Source: Escherichia coli
GTDB taxonomy: Bacteria > Pseudomonadota > Gammaproteobacteria > Enterobacterales > Enterobacteriaceae
Length of the DNA stretch: 64,000 bases
Strand: one strand, 5' to 3'
Assembly (NCBI RefSeq): GCF_041248615.1
Contig: NZ_CP158426.1
Made by a program: the position numbers
Part shown: positions 24,001-36,000 of the stretch, piece by piece
How the letters are laid out: every line of letters begins with the position of its first letter
How positions within the stretch are numbered: the first letter of the stretch is position 1

Positions 24001-27000
24001 CGTCGCACTGAAATCACCGCCAACAGCGCAGACATCAACCTGGAAGATCTGATCACCCAGGAAGATGTGGTCGTGACGCTCTCTCACCAGGGCTACGTGA
24101 AGTATCAGCCGCTTTCTGAATACGAAGCGCAGCGTCGTGGCGGGAAAGGCAAATCTGCCGCACGTATTAAAGAAGAAGACTTTATTGACCGACTGCTGGT
24201 GGCGAACACCCACGACCATATTCTGTGCTTCTCCAGCCGTGGTCGCGTCTATTCGATGAAAGTCTATCAGTTGCCGGAAGCCACTCGTGGCGCGCGCGGT
24301 CGTCCGATTGTCAACCTGCTGCCGCTGGAGCAGGACGAACGTATCACCGCGATCCTGCCGGTGACCGAGTTTGAAGAAGGCGTGAAAGTCTTCATGGCGA
24401 CCGCTAACGGTACTGTGAAGAAAACCGTCCTCACCGAATTCAACCGTCTGCGTACCGCCGGTAAAGTGGCGATCAAACTGGTTGAAGGCGATGAGCTGAT
24501 CGGCGTTGACCTGACCAGCGGCGAAGACGAAGTAATGCTGTTCTCCGCCGAAGGTAAAGTGGTGCGCTTTAAAGAGTCTTCTGTCCGTGCGATGGGCTGC
24601 AACACCACCGGTGTTCGCGGTATTCGTTTAGGCGAAGGCGATAAAGTCGTCTCTCTGATCGTGCCTCGTGGCGATGGCGCAATCCTCACCGCAACGCAGA
24701 ACGGTTATGGTAAACGTACCGCAGTGGCGGAATACCCGACTAAGTCGCGTGCGACGAAAGGGGTTATCTCCATCAAGGTTACCGAACGTAACGGTTTAGT
24801 GGTTGGCGCGGTGCAGGTAGATGACTGCGACCAGATCATGATGATCACCGATGCCGGTACGCTGGTACGTACTCGCGTTTCGGAAATCAGCATCGTGGGC
24901 CGTAACACCCAGGGCGTGATCCTCATCCGTACTGCGGAAGATGAAAACGTAGTGGGTCTGCAACGTGTTGCTGAACCGGTTGACGAGGAAGATCTGGATA
25001 CCATCGACGGCAGTGCCGCGGAAGGGGACGATGAAATCGCTCCGGAAGTGGACGTTGACGACGAGCCAGAAGAAGAATAATTTTACTTCTTCATGCCAAA
25101 AGGGAGCTATCTCCCTTGTTTGAATTGAAAAGTCCAGGCTGCAAAGTCTGGGCTTTTGTCGTATTAGGGCGCGGTAAAGTTTTGCTGTGCTCGTAAAAAA
25201 TGGCTGGCTATACACAAGGAATGTGGCAATGAGTGGTGAAAAAAAGGCGAAAGGCTGGCGGTTCTATGGTCTTGTAGGTTTTGGCGCAATAGCACTGCTT
25301 TCCGCTGGCGTCTGGGCGTTGCAATATGCTGGCAGTGGGCCAGAAAAAACGTTGTCGCCGCTGGTGGTGCACAACAATCTGCAAATCGATCTCAATGAGC
25401 CGGACCTCTTTCTCGACAGCGACTCTCTGAGCCAGCTTCCCAAAGATCTCCTTACCATTCCGTTTCTCCACGATGTTCTGAGTGAAGATTTCGTTTTCTA
25501 TTATCAGAATCATGCCGATCGTCTGGGCATTGAAGGCAGCATTCGCCGCATTGTCTATGAACACGATCTCACGCTGAAAGATAAGCTCTTTTCTTCACTC
25601 TTAGATCAGCCCGCGCAGGCGGCGCTATGGCACGATAAACAAGGCCATCTTTCACATTACATGGTGCTGATCCAGCGCAGTGGTTTAAGCAAACTGCTGG
25701 AGCCATTGTTGTTTGCCGCTACCAGCGACAGCCAGTTAAGCAAAACGGCAATCAGTAGTATTAAGCTAAATAGTGAAACCATCCCGGTTTATCAGTTGCG
25801 CTATAACGGCAATAACGCCCTGATGTTCGCGACTTATCAGGACAAGATGTTGGTATTTTCCAGCACGGATATGCTGTTTAAAGATGACCAGCAGGATACC
25901 GAAGCCACGGCGATCGCAAGTGATTTGTTGAGCGGTAAAAAACGCTGGCAAGCCAGCTTTGGCCTGGAAGAGCGTGCTGCTGAAAAAACGCCAGTACGCC
26001 AGCGCATCGTGGTCAGCGCCAGGTTGCTGGGGTTTGGCTACCAGCGATTAATGCCTTCTTTTGCTGGCGTACGCTTCGAAATGAGCAACGACGGCTGGCA
26101 TAGCTTTGTGGCGTTAAATGATGAATCCGCCAGCGTAGATGCCAGTTTCGATTTTACGCCGGTATGGAACAGTATGCCTGCCGGGGCCAGCTTCTGTGTG
26201 GCGGTGCCGTATTCGCATGGTATTGCCGAAGAGATGCTTTCGCACATCAGCCAGGAAAACGACAAGCTGAACGGGGCGTTAGATGGTGCAGCCGGGCTGT
26301 GCTGGTATGAAGACTCAAAATTACAAACCCCGTTATTTGTTGGTCAATTTGATGGCTCAGCCGAACAGGCACAACTGCCTGGGAAACTGTTTACGCAAAA
26401 TATTGGTGCGCACGAAAGCAAAGCGCCAGAAGGTGTTTTGCCGGTAAACCAGACTCAGCAGGGCGAAGCGCAAATCTGGCGTCGCGAAGTGAGTTCCCGA
26501 TACGGTCAGTATCCGAAAACACAGGCGGCGCAACCCGATCAATTAATGTCGGATTATTTTTTCCGCGTGTCGCTGGCGATGCAAAACAAAACGCTGCTTT
26601 TCTCCCTCGATGACACGCTGGTTAATAACGCCCTGCAAACACTGAATAAAACCCGTCCGGCAATGGTGGATGTAATACCCACTGATGGCATCGTTCCGCT
26701 CTATATCAATCCACAAGGCGTGGCGAAACTGCTGCGTAACGAAACGTTGACCAGTCTGCCGAAGAATCTCGAACCGGTTTTTTATAACGCCGCACAAACT
26801 TTATTAATGCCGAAGCTGGACGCTTTATCTCAACAACCGCGTTATGTCATGAAGCTGGCCCAGATGGAACCCGGTGCCGCCTGGCAGTGGCTACCCATAA
26901 CCTGGCAGCCGCTATGAGGCACGGGCTGCTGGCGCTGATTTGCTGGCTGTGTTGTGTTGTTGCCCATAGCGAAATGCTGAATGTCGAACAATCCGGGCTG

Positions 27001-33000: not shown

Positions 33001-36000
33001 TGAGCGAAAAGGGCAAACTGAAATTGCAGTCGCATCTTGATCGTGAAGAGTACGTTGCCAGAGTTCTGGATCGCGAGGCGAAAAGTACGCCCCCTGAGGC
33101 AGCGAAAGCCATGACCGTGGCGATTCGCACTTTTTTACAGCAAAACGCCAATCGGGAAGGCGATTGCCTGACCATCCCCGACAGTAGCGCCACGCAGCGT
33201 GTTTCTGCTTCGCCAGCGACCACGGGGGCGCGAACGATGACCGCCTGGACGCAGGATCTCATCTATGCGGGCGATCCGGTTCATTATCACGGCAGTCGCG
33301 CTACCGAAGGGACGCTTTCCTGGCGGCAAGCCATGGCCCAGGCGGGGCAGGGGGAGCGTTACGACCAGATACTCGCGTTTGCTTATCCCGACAACAGCCT
33401 TAGCCGCTGGGGAGCGCCACGCTCAACCTGCCAGTTATTACCCAAAGCGAAAGCCTGGCTGGCGAAAAAAATGCCGCAGTGGCGGCGTATATTACAAGGT
33501 GAGACGGGGTACAACGAACCAGACGTGTTTGCGGTTTGCCGTTTAGTCTCAGGTTTCCCCTATACCGATCGGCAGCAGAAACGGCTGTTTATTCGTAACT
33601 TCTTTACGCTTCAGGATCGGCTCGATTTAACCCATGAGTATCTGCATCTGGCCTTTGATGGTTATCCCACCGGGCTTGATGAGAACTATATCGAAACGCT
33701 GACCCGACAATTATTAATGGACTAATGCTATGCGAAAGATTTTTCTTCCGTTGTTACTGGTGGCGCTTTCGCCTGTTGCCCATGGCGAAGGTGTGCAGGA
33801 AGTCGAGATTGATGCACCGCTCTCTGGCTGGCATCAGGCAGAGGGCGAAGATGCCAGTTTTTCACAATCGATCAATTACCCGGCGTCGTCCGTCAACATG
33901 GCAGATGATCAAAATATCTCAGCGCAGATCCGCGGCAAAATAAAGAATTATGCTGCGGCGGGTAAAGTTCAGCAGGGCCGGCTGGTGGTCAACGGTGCCA
34001 GTATGCCGCAGAGAATTGAATCCGATGGTTCATTTGCACGCCCTTATATTTTCACTGAAGGCAGCAACAGCGTGCAGGTCATCAGCCCGGATGGGCAAAG
34101 CCGACAAAAAATGCAGTTTTACTCAACGCCGGGCGCTGGAGCGATCCGCGCGCGTTTACGGCTGGTTCTCTCCTGGGACACGGACAATACCGATCTCGAC
34201 CTTCACGTTGTTACGCCCGATGGCGAACACGCCTGGTACGGTAACACCGTGCTGAAAAACAGTGGTGCACTGGATATGGATGTCACGACGGGGTACGGAC
34301 CCGAGATTTTCGCCATGCCAGCGCCAGTTCACGGACGTTATCAGGTGTATATCAACTACTATGGCGGACGCAGCGAAACGGAATTGACGACCGCCCAACT
34401 GACGTTGATCACCGATGAAGGATCGGTCAATGAGAAACAGGAAACATTTATTGTACCGATGCGTAATGCTGGCGAGCTGACGCTGGTGAAAAGTTTTGAC
34501 TGGTGATTAATGGGGTTACCTTCGCCGTCGATGTTCAAGAAAACGCCCGATAACTTTCGCTATCGGGTGTTTTTATTGATTAATTCAACCGTTCAATCAC
34601 CATCGCAATTCCCTGGCCGCCACCAATGCACAGTGTTGCCAGCCCCAGCGTTTTATCGCGTGCCTGCATGGCATGTAATAGTGTGACCAGAATACGAGCA
34701 CCACTGGCACCGATAGGATGCCCGAGCGCGATGGCCCCGCCGTTGACATTCACTTTCTCAGAATCAAAGCCCAGGGTTTTCCCAACGGCAAGGAACTGTG
34801 CAGCAAATGCTTCATTACCCTCAATGAGATCAATATCCGCCAGTTGCAGCCCCGCCAGTTGTAACGCTTTTTGCGTGGCAGGTACTGGCCCCATACCCAT
34901 CAATGCGGGGGGCACGCCACCGCTGGCATAACTTTTAATGCGAGCCAGGGGGGTAAGGCCTGCTGCCAGCGCCGCAGATTCTTCCATAATCACCAGAGCG
35001 GCAGCACCGTCGTTAATACCAGACGCGTTCCCGGCGGTGACTGTTCCTGCTTTATCGAAGGCCGGGCGCAATGCGCCTAACGCTTCAGTCGTAGAATCCG
35101 CTTTCGGGAATTCGTCTTGACTGAAGACGAAGGTTTTCTTCCGAGTGACAACATTTACCGGGACGATTTCGGCTGTAAAAGCACCGGACTCAATTGCGGC
35201 TGCCGCTTTACGCTGTGAATGTAGCGCCAGTTCATCCTGCATTTCTCGGGTAATTCCGTACTCTTTGGCCACGTTCTCGGCGGTAATCCCCATATGATAA
35301 CCATGGGTGGCGCACATCAGACCATCGCGCAGGATTACGTCATAAACCTGTCCGTCTCCAAGACGATAACCAGAGCGTGCTTTTGCATCGAGTAAGTAGG
35401 GCGCTAAACTCATATTTTCCATACCCCCCGCCACAATGCTTTGCGCCTGACCTGCCTGAATTGCCTGGGCGGCAAGCGCCACACTTTTAAGACCCGAACC
35501 ACACACTTTATTGACCGTGAATCCGCACACCGTTTCTGCCAGCCCGCTTTTTAACAGTGCCTGACGTGCCGGATTTTGCCCCAACCCGGCTTGCAACACG
35601 TTACCCATAATCACTTCATCAATGTGTAGTGAATCGATTTTTGCACGTTCAATGGCGGCTTTAATTACTGTCGCCCCCAGGTCGATGGCGTTGGTGGAAG
35701 CGAGTGAACCGTTAAAACTACCGATAGCAGTACGTACCGCACTGACGATGACACAATTTTTCATTTTTTATTCCTTCTGTCTGTAGGGTTGCCGTCAGAA
35801 CAGCGTTAAACCAATGACGAAAATGACGCCGGAGAAGAGCAGGGCAGTGATGCAATAGCCCATGATGTCGCGGACACCGAGTCCGGCGATTGCCAGTGCT
35901 GGCAGCGCCCAGAATGGTTGTGCCATGTTCATCCATTGCTCGCCGTAGGCGATCGCCATTACCGATTTACCGAGATCAGCGCCCAGCGCCTGGGCTGCGG

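Follow-up and report, generated by a model that had tools for sequence, protein, structure and literature searches.

The yfaATSQP operon of Escherichia coli, which lies on the 64,000-nucleotide stretch of contig NZ_CP158426.1 (assembly GCF_041248615.1) that was analysed here and is called the window, encodes YfaS, a multi-domain alpha-2-macroglobulin of roughly 165 kDa. As judged from structural modelling, YfaS keeps the fold of a thioester domain but is without thioester chemistry. The region is an ordinary chromosomal operon of E. coli and the five-gene enterobacterial version of magABCDEF of Pseudomonas, without magA, and all five genes are under purifying selection. By analogy with MagD, the macroglobulin of the Pseudomonas operon, the YfaS complex probably resides in the periplasm, tethered to the inner membrane, and traps invading hydrolases without a covalent bond.

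The missing thioester of YfaS

Residues of YfaS are numbered from the ATG at 27471, which gives a protein of 1534 amino acids, unless the 1539-codon frame is named. Pfam recognizes MG2, A2M_BRD, A2M and bMG10 domains along the protein (Table 1), but none of the Pfam thioester-domain models matches it, and the thioester-domain fold is seen only in a structural model. A regular-expression search of the 1539-amino-acid translation for C.EQ found no occurrence of the motif. Just two cysteines occur: the signal peptide contains one, and the other is residue 1189 (1194 in the 1539-codon frame). The protein used for comparison was ECAM, the E. coli macroglobulin encoded by yfhM of K-12, adjoining pbpC. 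A weak BLASTP segment sets ECAM ...YPYGCLEQTASGLFP... opposite the GVIN segment of YfaS, and hhalign, run with a 111-member family profile against ECAM, aligned about 895 columns at 99.65% probability (E 5e-25) and paired C1187-L-E-Q1190 of ECAM with G1069-V-I-N1072 of YfaS at top alignment confidence. The thioester residues are replaced throughout, with Gly for Cys, Ile for Glu and Asn for Gln.

An AlphaFold2 model of residues 940-1534, built on a 61-sequence alignment, has a mean pLDDT (predicted local distance difference test) of 91.4 and a pTM (predicted template modelling score) of 0.89. It runs from beta domains through a 12-helix domain (residues 1051-1314) into further beta domains. 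The best Foldseek matches of this model are native ECAM (4ziu, E 8e-19), the Salmonella A2M (4u48) and the cryo-EM structure of ECAM (5a42), followed by complement C5, A2ML1, CD109, C3 and TEP1. When the PDB was searched by sequence with YfaS, complement C5 alone came up and ECAM was missed; profile and fold comparison were needed to find ECAM. The original prediction that YfaS is a thioester-less macroglobulin is therefore borne out: neither the motif search nor careful alignment recovered CxEQ, and the profile alignment puts GVIN at the CLEQ site, inside a predicted thioester-domain fold. In the bait, TNRSERR of YfaS corresponds to ANRSERG of MagD (MagD residues 847-853; PMC5764988).

The thioester motif across the YfaS/MagD family

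The C-terminal 595 amino acids of YfaS, searched against 1.84 billion cluster representatives, brought up only 218 relatives. CxEQ is kept, mostly as YPYGCVEQT, in 52 of the 68 newly retrieved sequences that span the site and each represent a cluster at 50% identity. An alignment of 111 sequences holds 62 with CxEQ, 22 with GGVEQ and 18 with GGV[I/V]N, the last forming one clade of E. coli, E. albertii, Superficieibacter, Serratia and Yersinia proteins and further relatives. Fitch parsimony on a neighbour-joining tree places the intact motif at the root and requires at least 12 changes; the tree is rough and midpoint-rooted, which makes this count of losses an estimate.

Members with the motif still reside in mag-type operons. 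The Pseudomonas citronellolis protein P0072, with CVEQ, and the protein P0087 of another Pseudomonas genome, with GGVEQ, are encoded in six-gene mag operons at the same chromosomal locus, in the order SbmA-type transporter, M23 peptidase, bactofilin, membrane transporter, mag, CMD, DPBB and gatBAC. One CTEQ and one CIEQ protein are located in DUF2138-MagC-A2M-DUF2300-YfaP_C clusters, and one CVEQ protein is solitary, without partner genes. Because 52 of the 68 representatives keep CxEQ and such members still occupy mag-type operons, the enterobacterial GGV[I/V]N reads, from these alignments, as a derived loss common to its clade, most of the wider family having retained the motif. In this matched Pseudomonas pair (8001-12545 of locus L004 and 7001-11554 of locus L011), one macroglobulin has YPYGCVEQT and the other YPWGGVEQT.

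It is quite likely that the family was ancestrally thioester-bearing and mostly still is, with at least 12 losses, one of them old and common to all of the enterobacterial clade, and with orthologous Pseudomonas operons at one locus that differ only in CVEQ against GGVEQ, so that MagD and YfaS would be derived exceptions and the division of bacterial macroglobulins into type I and type II a sampling artefact. If this is true, repeated loss under purifying selection would mean that the mag complex can stand in for covalent capture. The Pseudomonas loci with and without the Cys, together with the recurrent losses, offer a natural experiment on what the thioester contributes. The second class was described as lacking CxEQ "in many species" (Neves et al. 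2012, PMC3328433), and the mixed picture was at least partly recognized by 2012; what would be new is its extent and the direction of change.

Operon structure and partner proteins

A list of open reading frames for 23000-37000 places yfaA, yfaT, yfaS, yfaQ and yfaP at 25229-34506 of the window, all on the + strand and flanked by gyrA and atoB. The same genes are annotated by RefSeq in E. coli NZ_OW967178.1, a clinical isolate from Madrid that is 100% identical over the operon region: yfaA (DUF2138), yfaT (DUF1175), an alpha-2-macroglobulin family protein, yfaQ and yfaP, with gyrA and atoB on either side. Together with Pfam scans of all five proteins, these two lists uphold the earlier claim of an intact five-gene operon of YfaS type. 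Its tight junctions, also claimed before, can be read directly in the sequence. An ATGA (GCTATGAGG) contains both the stop of yfaA and the start of yfaT, the GTG of yfaQ directly follows the TAA of yfaS (GAAATAAGTGAAC), and 4 bases separate the yfaQ stop from the ATG of yfaP. A foreign base composition was ruled out, the fraction of G and C over the operon being an unremarkable 0.51-0.555. PADLOC gave 0 matches for any of the five proteins, and Rfam 0 matches over 24800-34800.

That the functions of the partner proteins are known mainly from the Mag operon of Pseudomonas, as the original prediction had it, agrees with the literature (PMC3735191, PMC5764988). YfaA matches Pfam PF09909 (DUF2138, E 5.5e-288) and NCBIfam NF008500, and has an N-terminal hydrophobic anchor segment, WRFYGLVGFGAIALLSAGVWAL; its homolog MagB is a predicted membrane anchor that stabilizes MagD (PMC5764988). 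YfaT matches PF06672 (DUF1175, E 8e-58) and, weakly, NlpC/P60, and aligns over 186 residues with the protein of the MagC crystal structure, PDB 7bk8 (phmmer E 2.3e-102). DUF1175 has been placed in a classification paper as a catalytically inactive, peptidoglycan-binding, NlpC/P60-like family (PMC10318531). In YfaQ, Pfam finds a weak SpoIID-like stretch with a DUF2300 domain on either side, and YfaP matches PF09906 (DUF2135/YfaP_C, E 5.6e-17). The N-termini of YfaT, YfaQ and YfaP are signal-peptide-like. NCBIfam returned nothing for YfaT, YfaS and YfaQ, and for YfaP only a chance match.

The gap between gyrA and yfaA measures 148 nucleotides and holds no open reading frame, leaving no room for magA. 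In both Pseudomonas loci examined, MagA is a second YfaP_C (PF09906) paralog, encoded upstream. The order DUF2138-DUF1175-A2M-DUF2300-DUF2135 recurs in five of the loci compared (L004, L005, L008, L010 and L011), two of which, from Serratia (L010) and from a metagenome (L005), have the five-gene form.

The start of yfaS and its export signal

The original prediction gave YfaS as one frame of 1539 amino acids. The frame is indeed open throughout, but 1539 is the length of the longest possible open reading frame, and the likely protein has 1534. Upstream of the ATG at 27471, at a distance of 8 nucleotides, lies an AAGGA Shine-Dalgarno sequence, and there is none in front of the ATG at 27456 or of the RefSeq start, the GTG at 27561 (1504 amino acids). 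The ATG at 27471 is thus the likely start, and the sole well-supported one that gives a signal peptide (...GLANA/DDS). Across the family, the mature N-terminus (D/E)(D/E)xxPxSxY..FFLL.DSSF is conserved directly after the members' own signal peptides, which end in an AxA site, and an E. albertii protein in the non-redundant database is annotated with the same 1534-amino-acid start. IAAC at residues 22-25 also matches the lipobox pattern, and YfaS may alternatively be read as a lipoprotein; the N-terminus otherwise reads as a signal-peptidase-I type ending in ANA/DD. A Tat-type signal, suggested by the RR in the n-region of some relatives, was set aside; this pair is not found in E. coli YfaS.

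With the start at 27471, the first 67 nucleotides of yfaS (27471-27537) are also the conserved 3' end of yfaT and are read in two frames, as the C-terminus of YfaT and as the n-region of the signal peptide of YfaS. Comparable N-terminal extensions, "MDT[QR]R..Q.Q...", occur in gene calls from Serratia and Pseudomonas. These are probably the conserved magC 3' end in another frame, because the genes concerned also contain an internal Met from which a normal signal peptide begins. A Serratia call of 1544 amino acids with the same 67-nucleotide overlap was accordingly set aside as support for the long start, since other Serratia calls use the internal Met with its normal signal peptide. No internal Met start of the Serratia kind exists in yfaS of E. 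coli or E. albertii. The GTG at 27561 is also used across a cluster of 40,950 sequences; it probably removes the signal peptide, and localization predictions built on this RefSeq start would be wrong.

Distribution, the K-12 allele and selection

Among 5426 complete E. coli genomes, the 9.3-kb operon region finds a match in 5397, and in 5178 at least 80% of it is covered at one place. In K-12, yfaS is a RefSeq pseudogene with an "internal stop". The earlier statement that the K-12 gene is a pseudogene is confirmed by this flag and by a base-by-base comparison, which locates the lesion in a single TGG to TGA change at codon 1373 of 1539, or 1368 of 1534. The exact K-12 61-mer around the stop occurs in 364 of the 5426 genomes, K-12 and other laboratory strains being the best-listed matches, and the main cluster of intact, 1504-amino-acid proteins has 40,950 member sequences. 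With the stop in so few genomes and so many sequences in the intact cluster, intact yfaS is the rule in E. coli and the K-12 laboratory lineage the exception. The original prediction was thus right that yfaS is intact here but overrated the novelty of this, because the intact state is normal and the thioester-less class is published. The window itself matters little, as its operon is core to E. coli, belongs to a class already described and is in its normal state, and K-12 is unsuitable for studying the YfaS system in E. coli.

Two isolates carry in-frame deletions in yfaS, both in macroglobulin (MG)-domain sequence. One, in locus L012, removes 306 nucleotides across a 27-nucleotide direct repeat (q 3283-3309); the other, in L013, removes 1515 nucleotides across a 12-nucleotide direct repeat (q 2628-2639). 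L012 also has a stop at codon 265 of yfaQ. Searches for the deletion junctions found the shorter deletion in 1 complete genome (MB41-1) and the longer in 0. The 102-amino-acid deletion was accordingly rejected as a trait of the O157:H7 lineage, for only MB41-1 has it and the other matches are two normal pieces joined; the idea that the 505-amino-acid deletion is common fell likewise.

The ratio of nonsynonymous to synonymous substitution rates (dN/dS; Nei-Gojobori, window against K-12) is 0.064 for yfaA, 0.176 for yfaT, 0.085 for yfaS, 0.155 for yfaQ and 0.067 for yfaP, and 0.098 for the part of yfaS that encodes the CUB and thioester domains. Genomes at least 99% identical to the window number 4 over 25229-34506, 15 over the flank 2000-11000 and 520 over the flank 38500-47500, most genomes being about 97% identical. 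A recombinant patch at the yfa allele was ruled out, as such matches are scarce in the flanking segments too. Since close matches are few in all three segments, the lineage of E. coli from which the window derives is sparsely sampled. Its ubiG is 94.7% identical to that of K-12.

Proposed function and alternatives

From the E. coli data come the gene content, the domains, the missing thioester residues, the predicted export signals, the selection and the near-universal presence in the species; from P. aeruginosa MagD come complex assembly, membrane tethering, non-covalent trapping and protection from type VI secretion system (T6SS) effectors. MagD with a bait that contains the site of tobacco etch virus (TEV) protease traps this enzyme non-covalently, and MagB is needed for its stability and membrane association; the MagD bait is cut by chymotrypsin, trypsin and papain (PMC5764988). 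magD protects P. aeruginosa from VgrG3 and Tae1, two T6SS effectors that target peptidoglycan (2025 study, PMC12663445).

In E. coli, YfaS would be exported via its signal peptide and kept at the inner membrane in a complex, with YfaA, the MagB homolog, as the putative membrane anchor. YfaT, the MagC homolog, would serve in the complex as a catalytically inactive, NlpC/P60-like binder of peptidoglycan, and YfaQ and YfaP would complete the assembly. An incoming hydrolase would cut the bait, upon which YfaS would change shape and hold the enzyme non-covalently. The periplasm and the cell wall would thereby be protected from host proteases or from the effectors of rival bacteria.

Several points weigh against this proposal. 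MagD was only partly cleaved in vitro (PMC5764988), and E. coli is without MagA, one of the binding partners of MagD. The RefSeq start codon gives a YfaS without signal peptide, with just 8 residues ahead of the mature N-terminus, and such a protein would therefore not be exported. Growth of K-12 is normal although it has no full-length YfaS, and deletions occur in sporadic isolates, so that the system is dispensable in the laboratory. A consensus scan found no sigma-70 promoter upstream of yfaA, and no experimental work on the E. coli Yfa proteins was found in the searchable literature.

A conceivable but rather doubtful alternative is that the complex is no protease inhibitor but a guard or scaffold of the cell wall, in which the macroglobulin and its peptidoglycan-binding partners shield or monitor peptidoglycan and sterically block glycosidase or amidase effectors, with no trap set off by bait cleavage. 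It would fit that neither the lysozyme-like VgrG3 nor Tae1 is a classical bait-cleaving protease, though MagD protects from both (PMC12663445). It would likewise fit the peptidoglycan-related folds of YfaT (NlpC/P60-like) and YfaQ (the weak SpoIID-like segment), and a bait sequence, NRSER..LERPRRE, whose conservation across the family is unusual for a broad-spectrum bait. It sits poorly, however, with the capture of TEV protease by MagD with an engineered bait, with the cutting of the natural bait by three different proteases, and with a full macroglobulin architecture, including the thioester-domain fold, that is kept under purifying selection.

That the operon is instead a decaying remnant, which first lost its thioester and later acquired the K-12 stop and the deletions of isolates, is improbable. 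The K-12 nonsense mutation would suit such decay, but the allele is restricted to 364 genomes, and the sporadic in-frame deletions of 306 and 1515 nucleotides (with a yfaQ stop in one isolate) would suit it as well, but are present in 1 and 0 complete genomes, respectively. All three thioester residues are replaced; yet GGV[I/V]N is common to the proteins of E. albertii, Superficieibacter, Serratia and Yersinia, which are only 54-90% identical to YfaS, and the thioester-less form has therefore been long maintained. The absence of the type II form from Salmonella (PMC5764988) would suit decay too. At least 80% of the region is present in 5178 of 5426 E. coli genomes, and dN/dS is 0.06-0.18 over all five genes and 0.098 in the thioester-domain part. 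Covalent binding of targets by chemistry other than a Cys-Gln thioester is extremely improbable: the thioester-domain fold and neighbouring motifs (PWG...) are retained, whereas mature YfaS has a single Cys, 1189, far from the site, Gly and Asn stand in place of both the Cys and the Gln that a thioester requires, and MagD does not react with methylamine (PMC3735191) and holds TEV protease non-covalently.

Features of the operon and its surroundings

The hairpins between gyrA and yfaA (Table 1) likely form the gyrA terminator, as judged from a terminator scan and the sequence. Compared with shuffled sequences, the 81-nucleotide yfaA leader has the more stable fold (z-score -2.44). The hairpin that presents the GGA in its loop has a z-score of -0.44, which is not significant, and could, speculatively, be a candidate CsrA/RsmA site; mag of P. 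aeruginosa is regulated by RsmA (PMC3735191). An 11-bp hairpin, GGGCGCGGUAA-AGUU-UUGCUGUGCUC, lies at 25167-25192, just upstream of the yfaA ribosome-binding site. Downstream of the operon, the hairpin at 34539-34574 is probably a bidirectional terminator for the convergent yfaP and atoB.

Table 1. Positions in the window of the operon genes, the domains and sites of YfaS, and the flanking RNA elements
Feature	Position	Strand	Details
gyrA-yfaA intergenic hairpins	25100-25160	+	25100-25117, then CCAGGC-TGCAAA-GTCTGG, then GCTTTTGT
Hairpin CACA-AGGAA-UGUG	25213-25225	+	yfaA Shine-Dalgarno GGA in loop; in minimum-free-energy fold
yfaA	frame 25187-26917, annotated start 25229	+	562 amino acids; DUF2138; MagB homolog
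yfaT	frame 26887-27537, annotated start 26914	+	207 amino acids; DUF1175/MagC; predicted signal peptide
yfaS	frame 27456-32075 (1539 codons); 27471-32075 (1534 amino acids)	+	type II alpha-2-macroglobulin
Predicted YfaS Sec signal peptide	27471-27584	+	read from sequence; AxA end, cleavage before DDSLP
MG2	28500-28790 (residues 344-440)	+	Pfam PF01835, E 4.6e-19
Bait-region domain (A2M_BRD)	29451-29888 (residues 661-806)	+	Pfam PF07703, E 2.8e-16
NRSER	30024-30038 (residues 852-856)	+	counterpart of MagD bait ANRSERG
A2M	30081-30329 (residues 871-953)	+	Pfam PF00207, E 7.6e-13
Thioester-domain (TED) fold, all-helical	30621-31412 (residues 1051-1314)	+	predicted; AlphaFold2 and Foldseek
G1069-V-I-N1072, CLEQ-equivalent site	30675-30686	+	hhalign, BLASTP segment, family column
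Trp1368 TGG, K-12 TGA	31572-31574	+	base-by-base comparison with K-12 locus L002
C-terminal bMG10	31695-32021 (residues 1409-1517)	+	Pfam PF17973, E 1.3e-5
yfaQ	32076-33725	+	549 amino acids; GTG start; two DUF2300; predicted signal peptide; MagE homolog
yfaP	33730-34506	+	258 amino acids; DUF2135/YfaP_C; predicted signal peptide; MagF homolog
Hairpin between A-run and U-run	34539-34574	.	-19.4 kcal/mol, z-score -6.08; terminator scan

The remaining window is the usual 50-minute region of E. coli, from yfaU and glp through to nap and ccm. The gene for ecotin (eco), another periplasmic inhibitor of serine proteases, lies at 56825-57313 on the - strand, about 22 kb downstream of the operon. An IS3-family IS1397 transposase with a programmed frameshift occupies 11873-13221, between inaA and yfaE, and an ISNCY-family transposase annotated as rpnE lies at 862-1833, adjoining a truncated hypothetical gene. 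Just upstream of the operon, GyrA reads Leu83 and His87 (codons 22699-22701 and 22711-22713), a double change in the quinolone resistance-determining region; the isolate from which the window stems is a clinical one. The wild-type residue at position 87 is Asp. The K-12 record used for comparison (NZ_CP174267.1, locus L002) has Asn at this position and, labelled as the K-12 "original strain", may be a quinolone-selected derivative.

Comparison with known systems

Thioester-less type II macroglobulins in mag-type operons, that of E. coli included, are already published. E. coli carries both macroglobulin classes (Neves et al. 2012, PMC3328433), which Zouhir et al. 2018 named type I and type II, the latter defined by the missing CxEQ (PMC5764988). 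ECAM (YfhM) and the Salmonella protein Sa-A2M represent type I; they share architecture, fold and periplasmic location (predicted for YfaS) with YfaS, and they are the best structural matches of its C-terminal model. Unlike YfaS, with its GVIN and a signal that reads as the signal-peptidase-I type, ECAM has CLEQ at 1187-1190 and a lipoprotein signal, LAGC, and its gene adjoins pbpC, whereas yfaS stands at the gyrA/atoB locus with four dedicated partner genes. BLASTP between YfaS and ECAM is marginal (E 3e-7 over the MG region, 0.06 over the thioester domain). Having no CxEQ and no place beside pbpC, YfaS is not a member of type I.

Complement C5, a high-ranking structural match, resembles YfaS in combining the macroglobulin fold with a thioester-domain fold that has no thioester, but it is eukaryotic, consists of two chains, is activated by convertase cleavage, is no trap and has no operon partners. 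The P. citronellolis protein P0072 is encoded in the same kind of operon as YfaS and is 55% identical to it, but differs in keeping YPYGCVEQT; no experimental study of thioester-bearing members of the YfaS/MagD family was found in the searchable literature.

The closest known system is the magABCDEF operon of P. aeruginosa, with which yfaATSQP shares the gene order DUF2138, DUF1175, A2M, DUF2300, DUF2135. MagD has neither a lipobox Cys nor the Cys of CXEQ and is found at the inner membrane, complexed with other Mag proteins (Robert-Genthon et al. 2013, PMC3735191). Non-covalent trapping of a protease and an inner-membrane complex with MagB, MagF and MagA have been demonstrated for P. aeruginosa MagD only (PMC5764988, PMC3735191). 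YfaS resembles MagD in having no thioester Cys and in the NRSER bait motif, probably also in having a signal peptide that, but for the lipobox-like IAAC, shows no convincing lipoprotein signal, and is 54-56% identical to homologs from six-gene mag operons of the genus Pseudomonas, a figure that does not refer to MagD itself. The systems also differ. The thioester-less Pseudomonas homologs compared here read GGVEQ, whereas the enterobacterial clade has lost the Glu and Gln too (GGVIN); in E. coli, the 3' end of yfaT contains the coding sequence for the n-region of the YfaS signal peptide; and the mag operon has six genes, with MagA, where E. coli has five. YfaS combines the macroglobulin architecture, the absence of CxEQ, the operon of partner genes and the MagD-like bait that characterize type II, and the missing magA marks a five-gene variant and is no ground for excluding it from that class.

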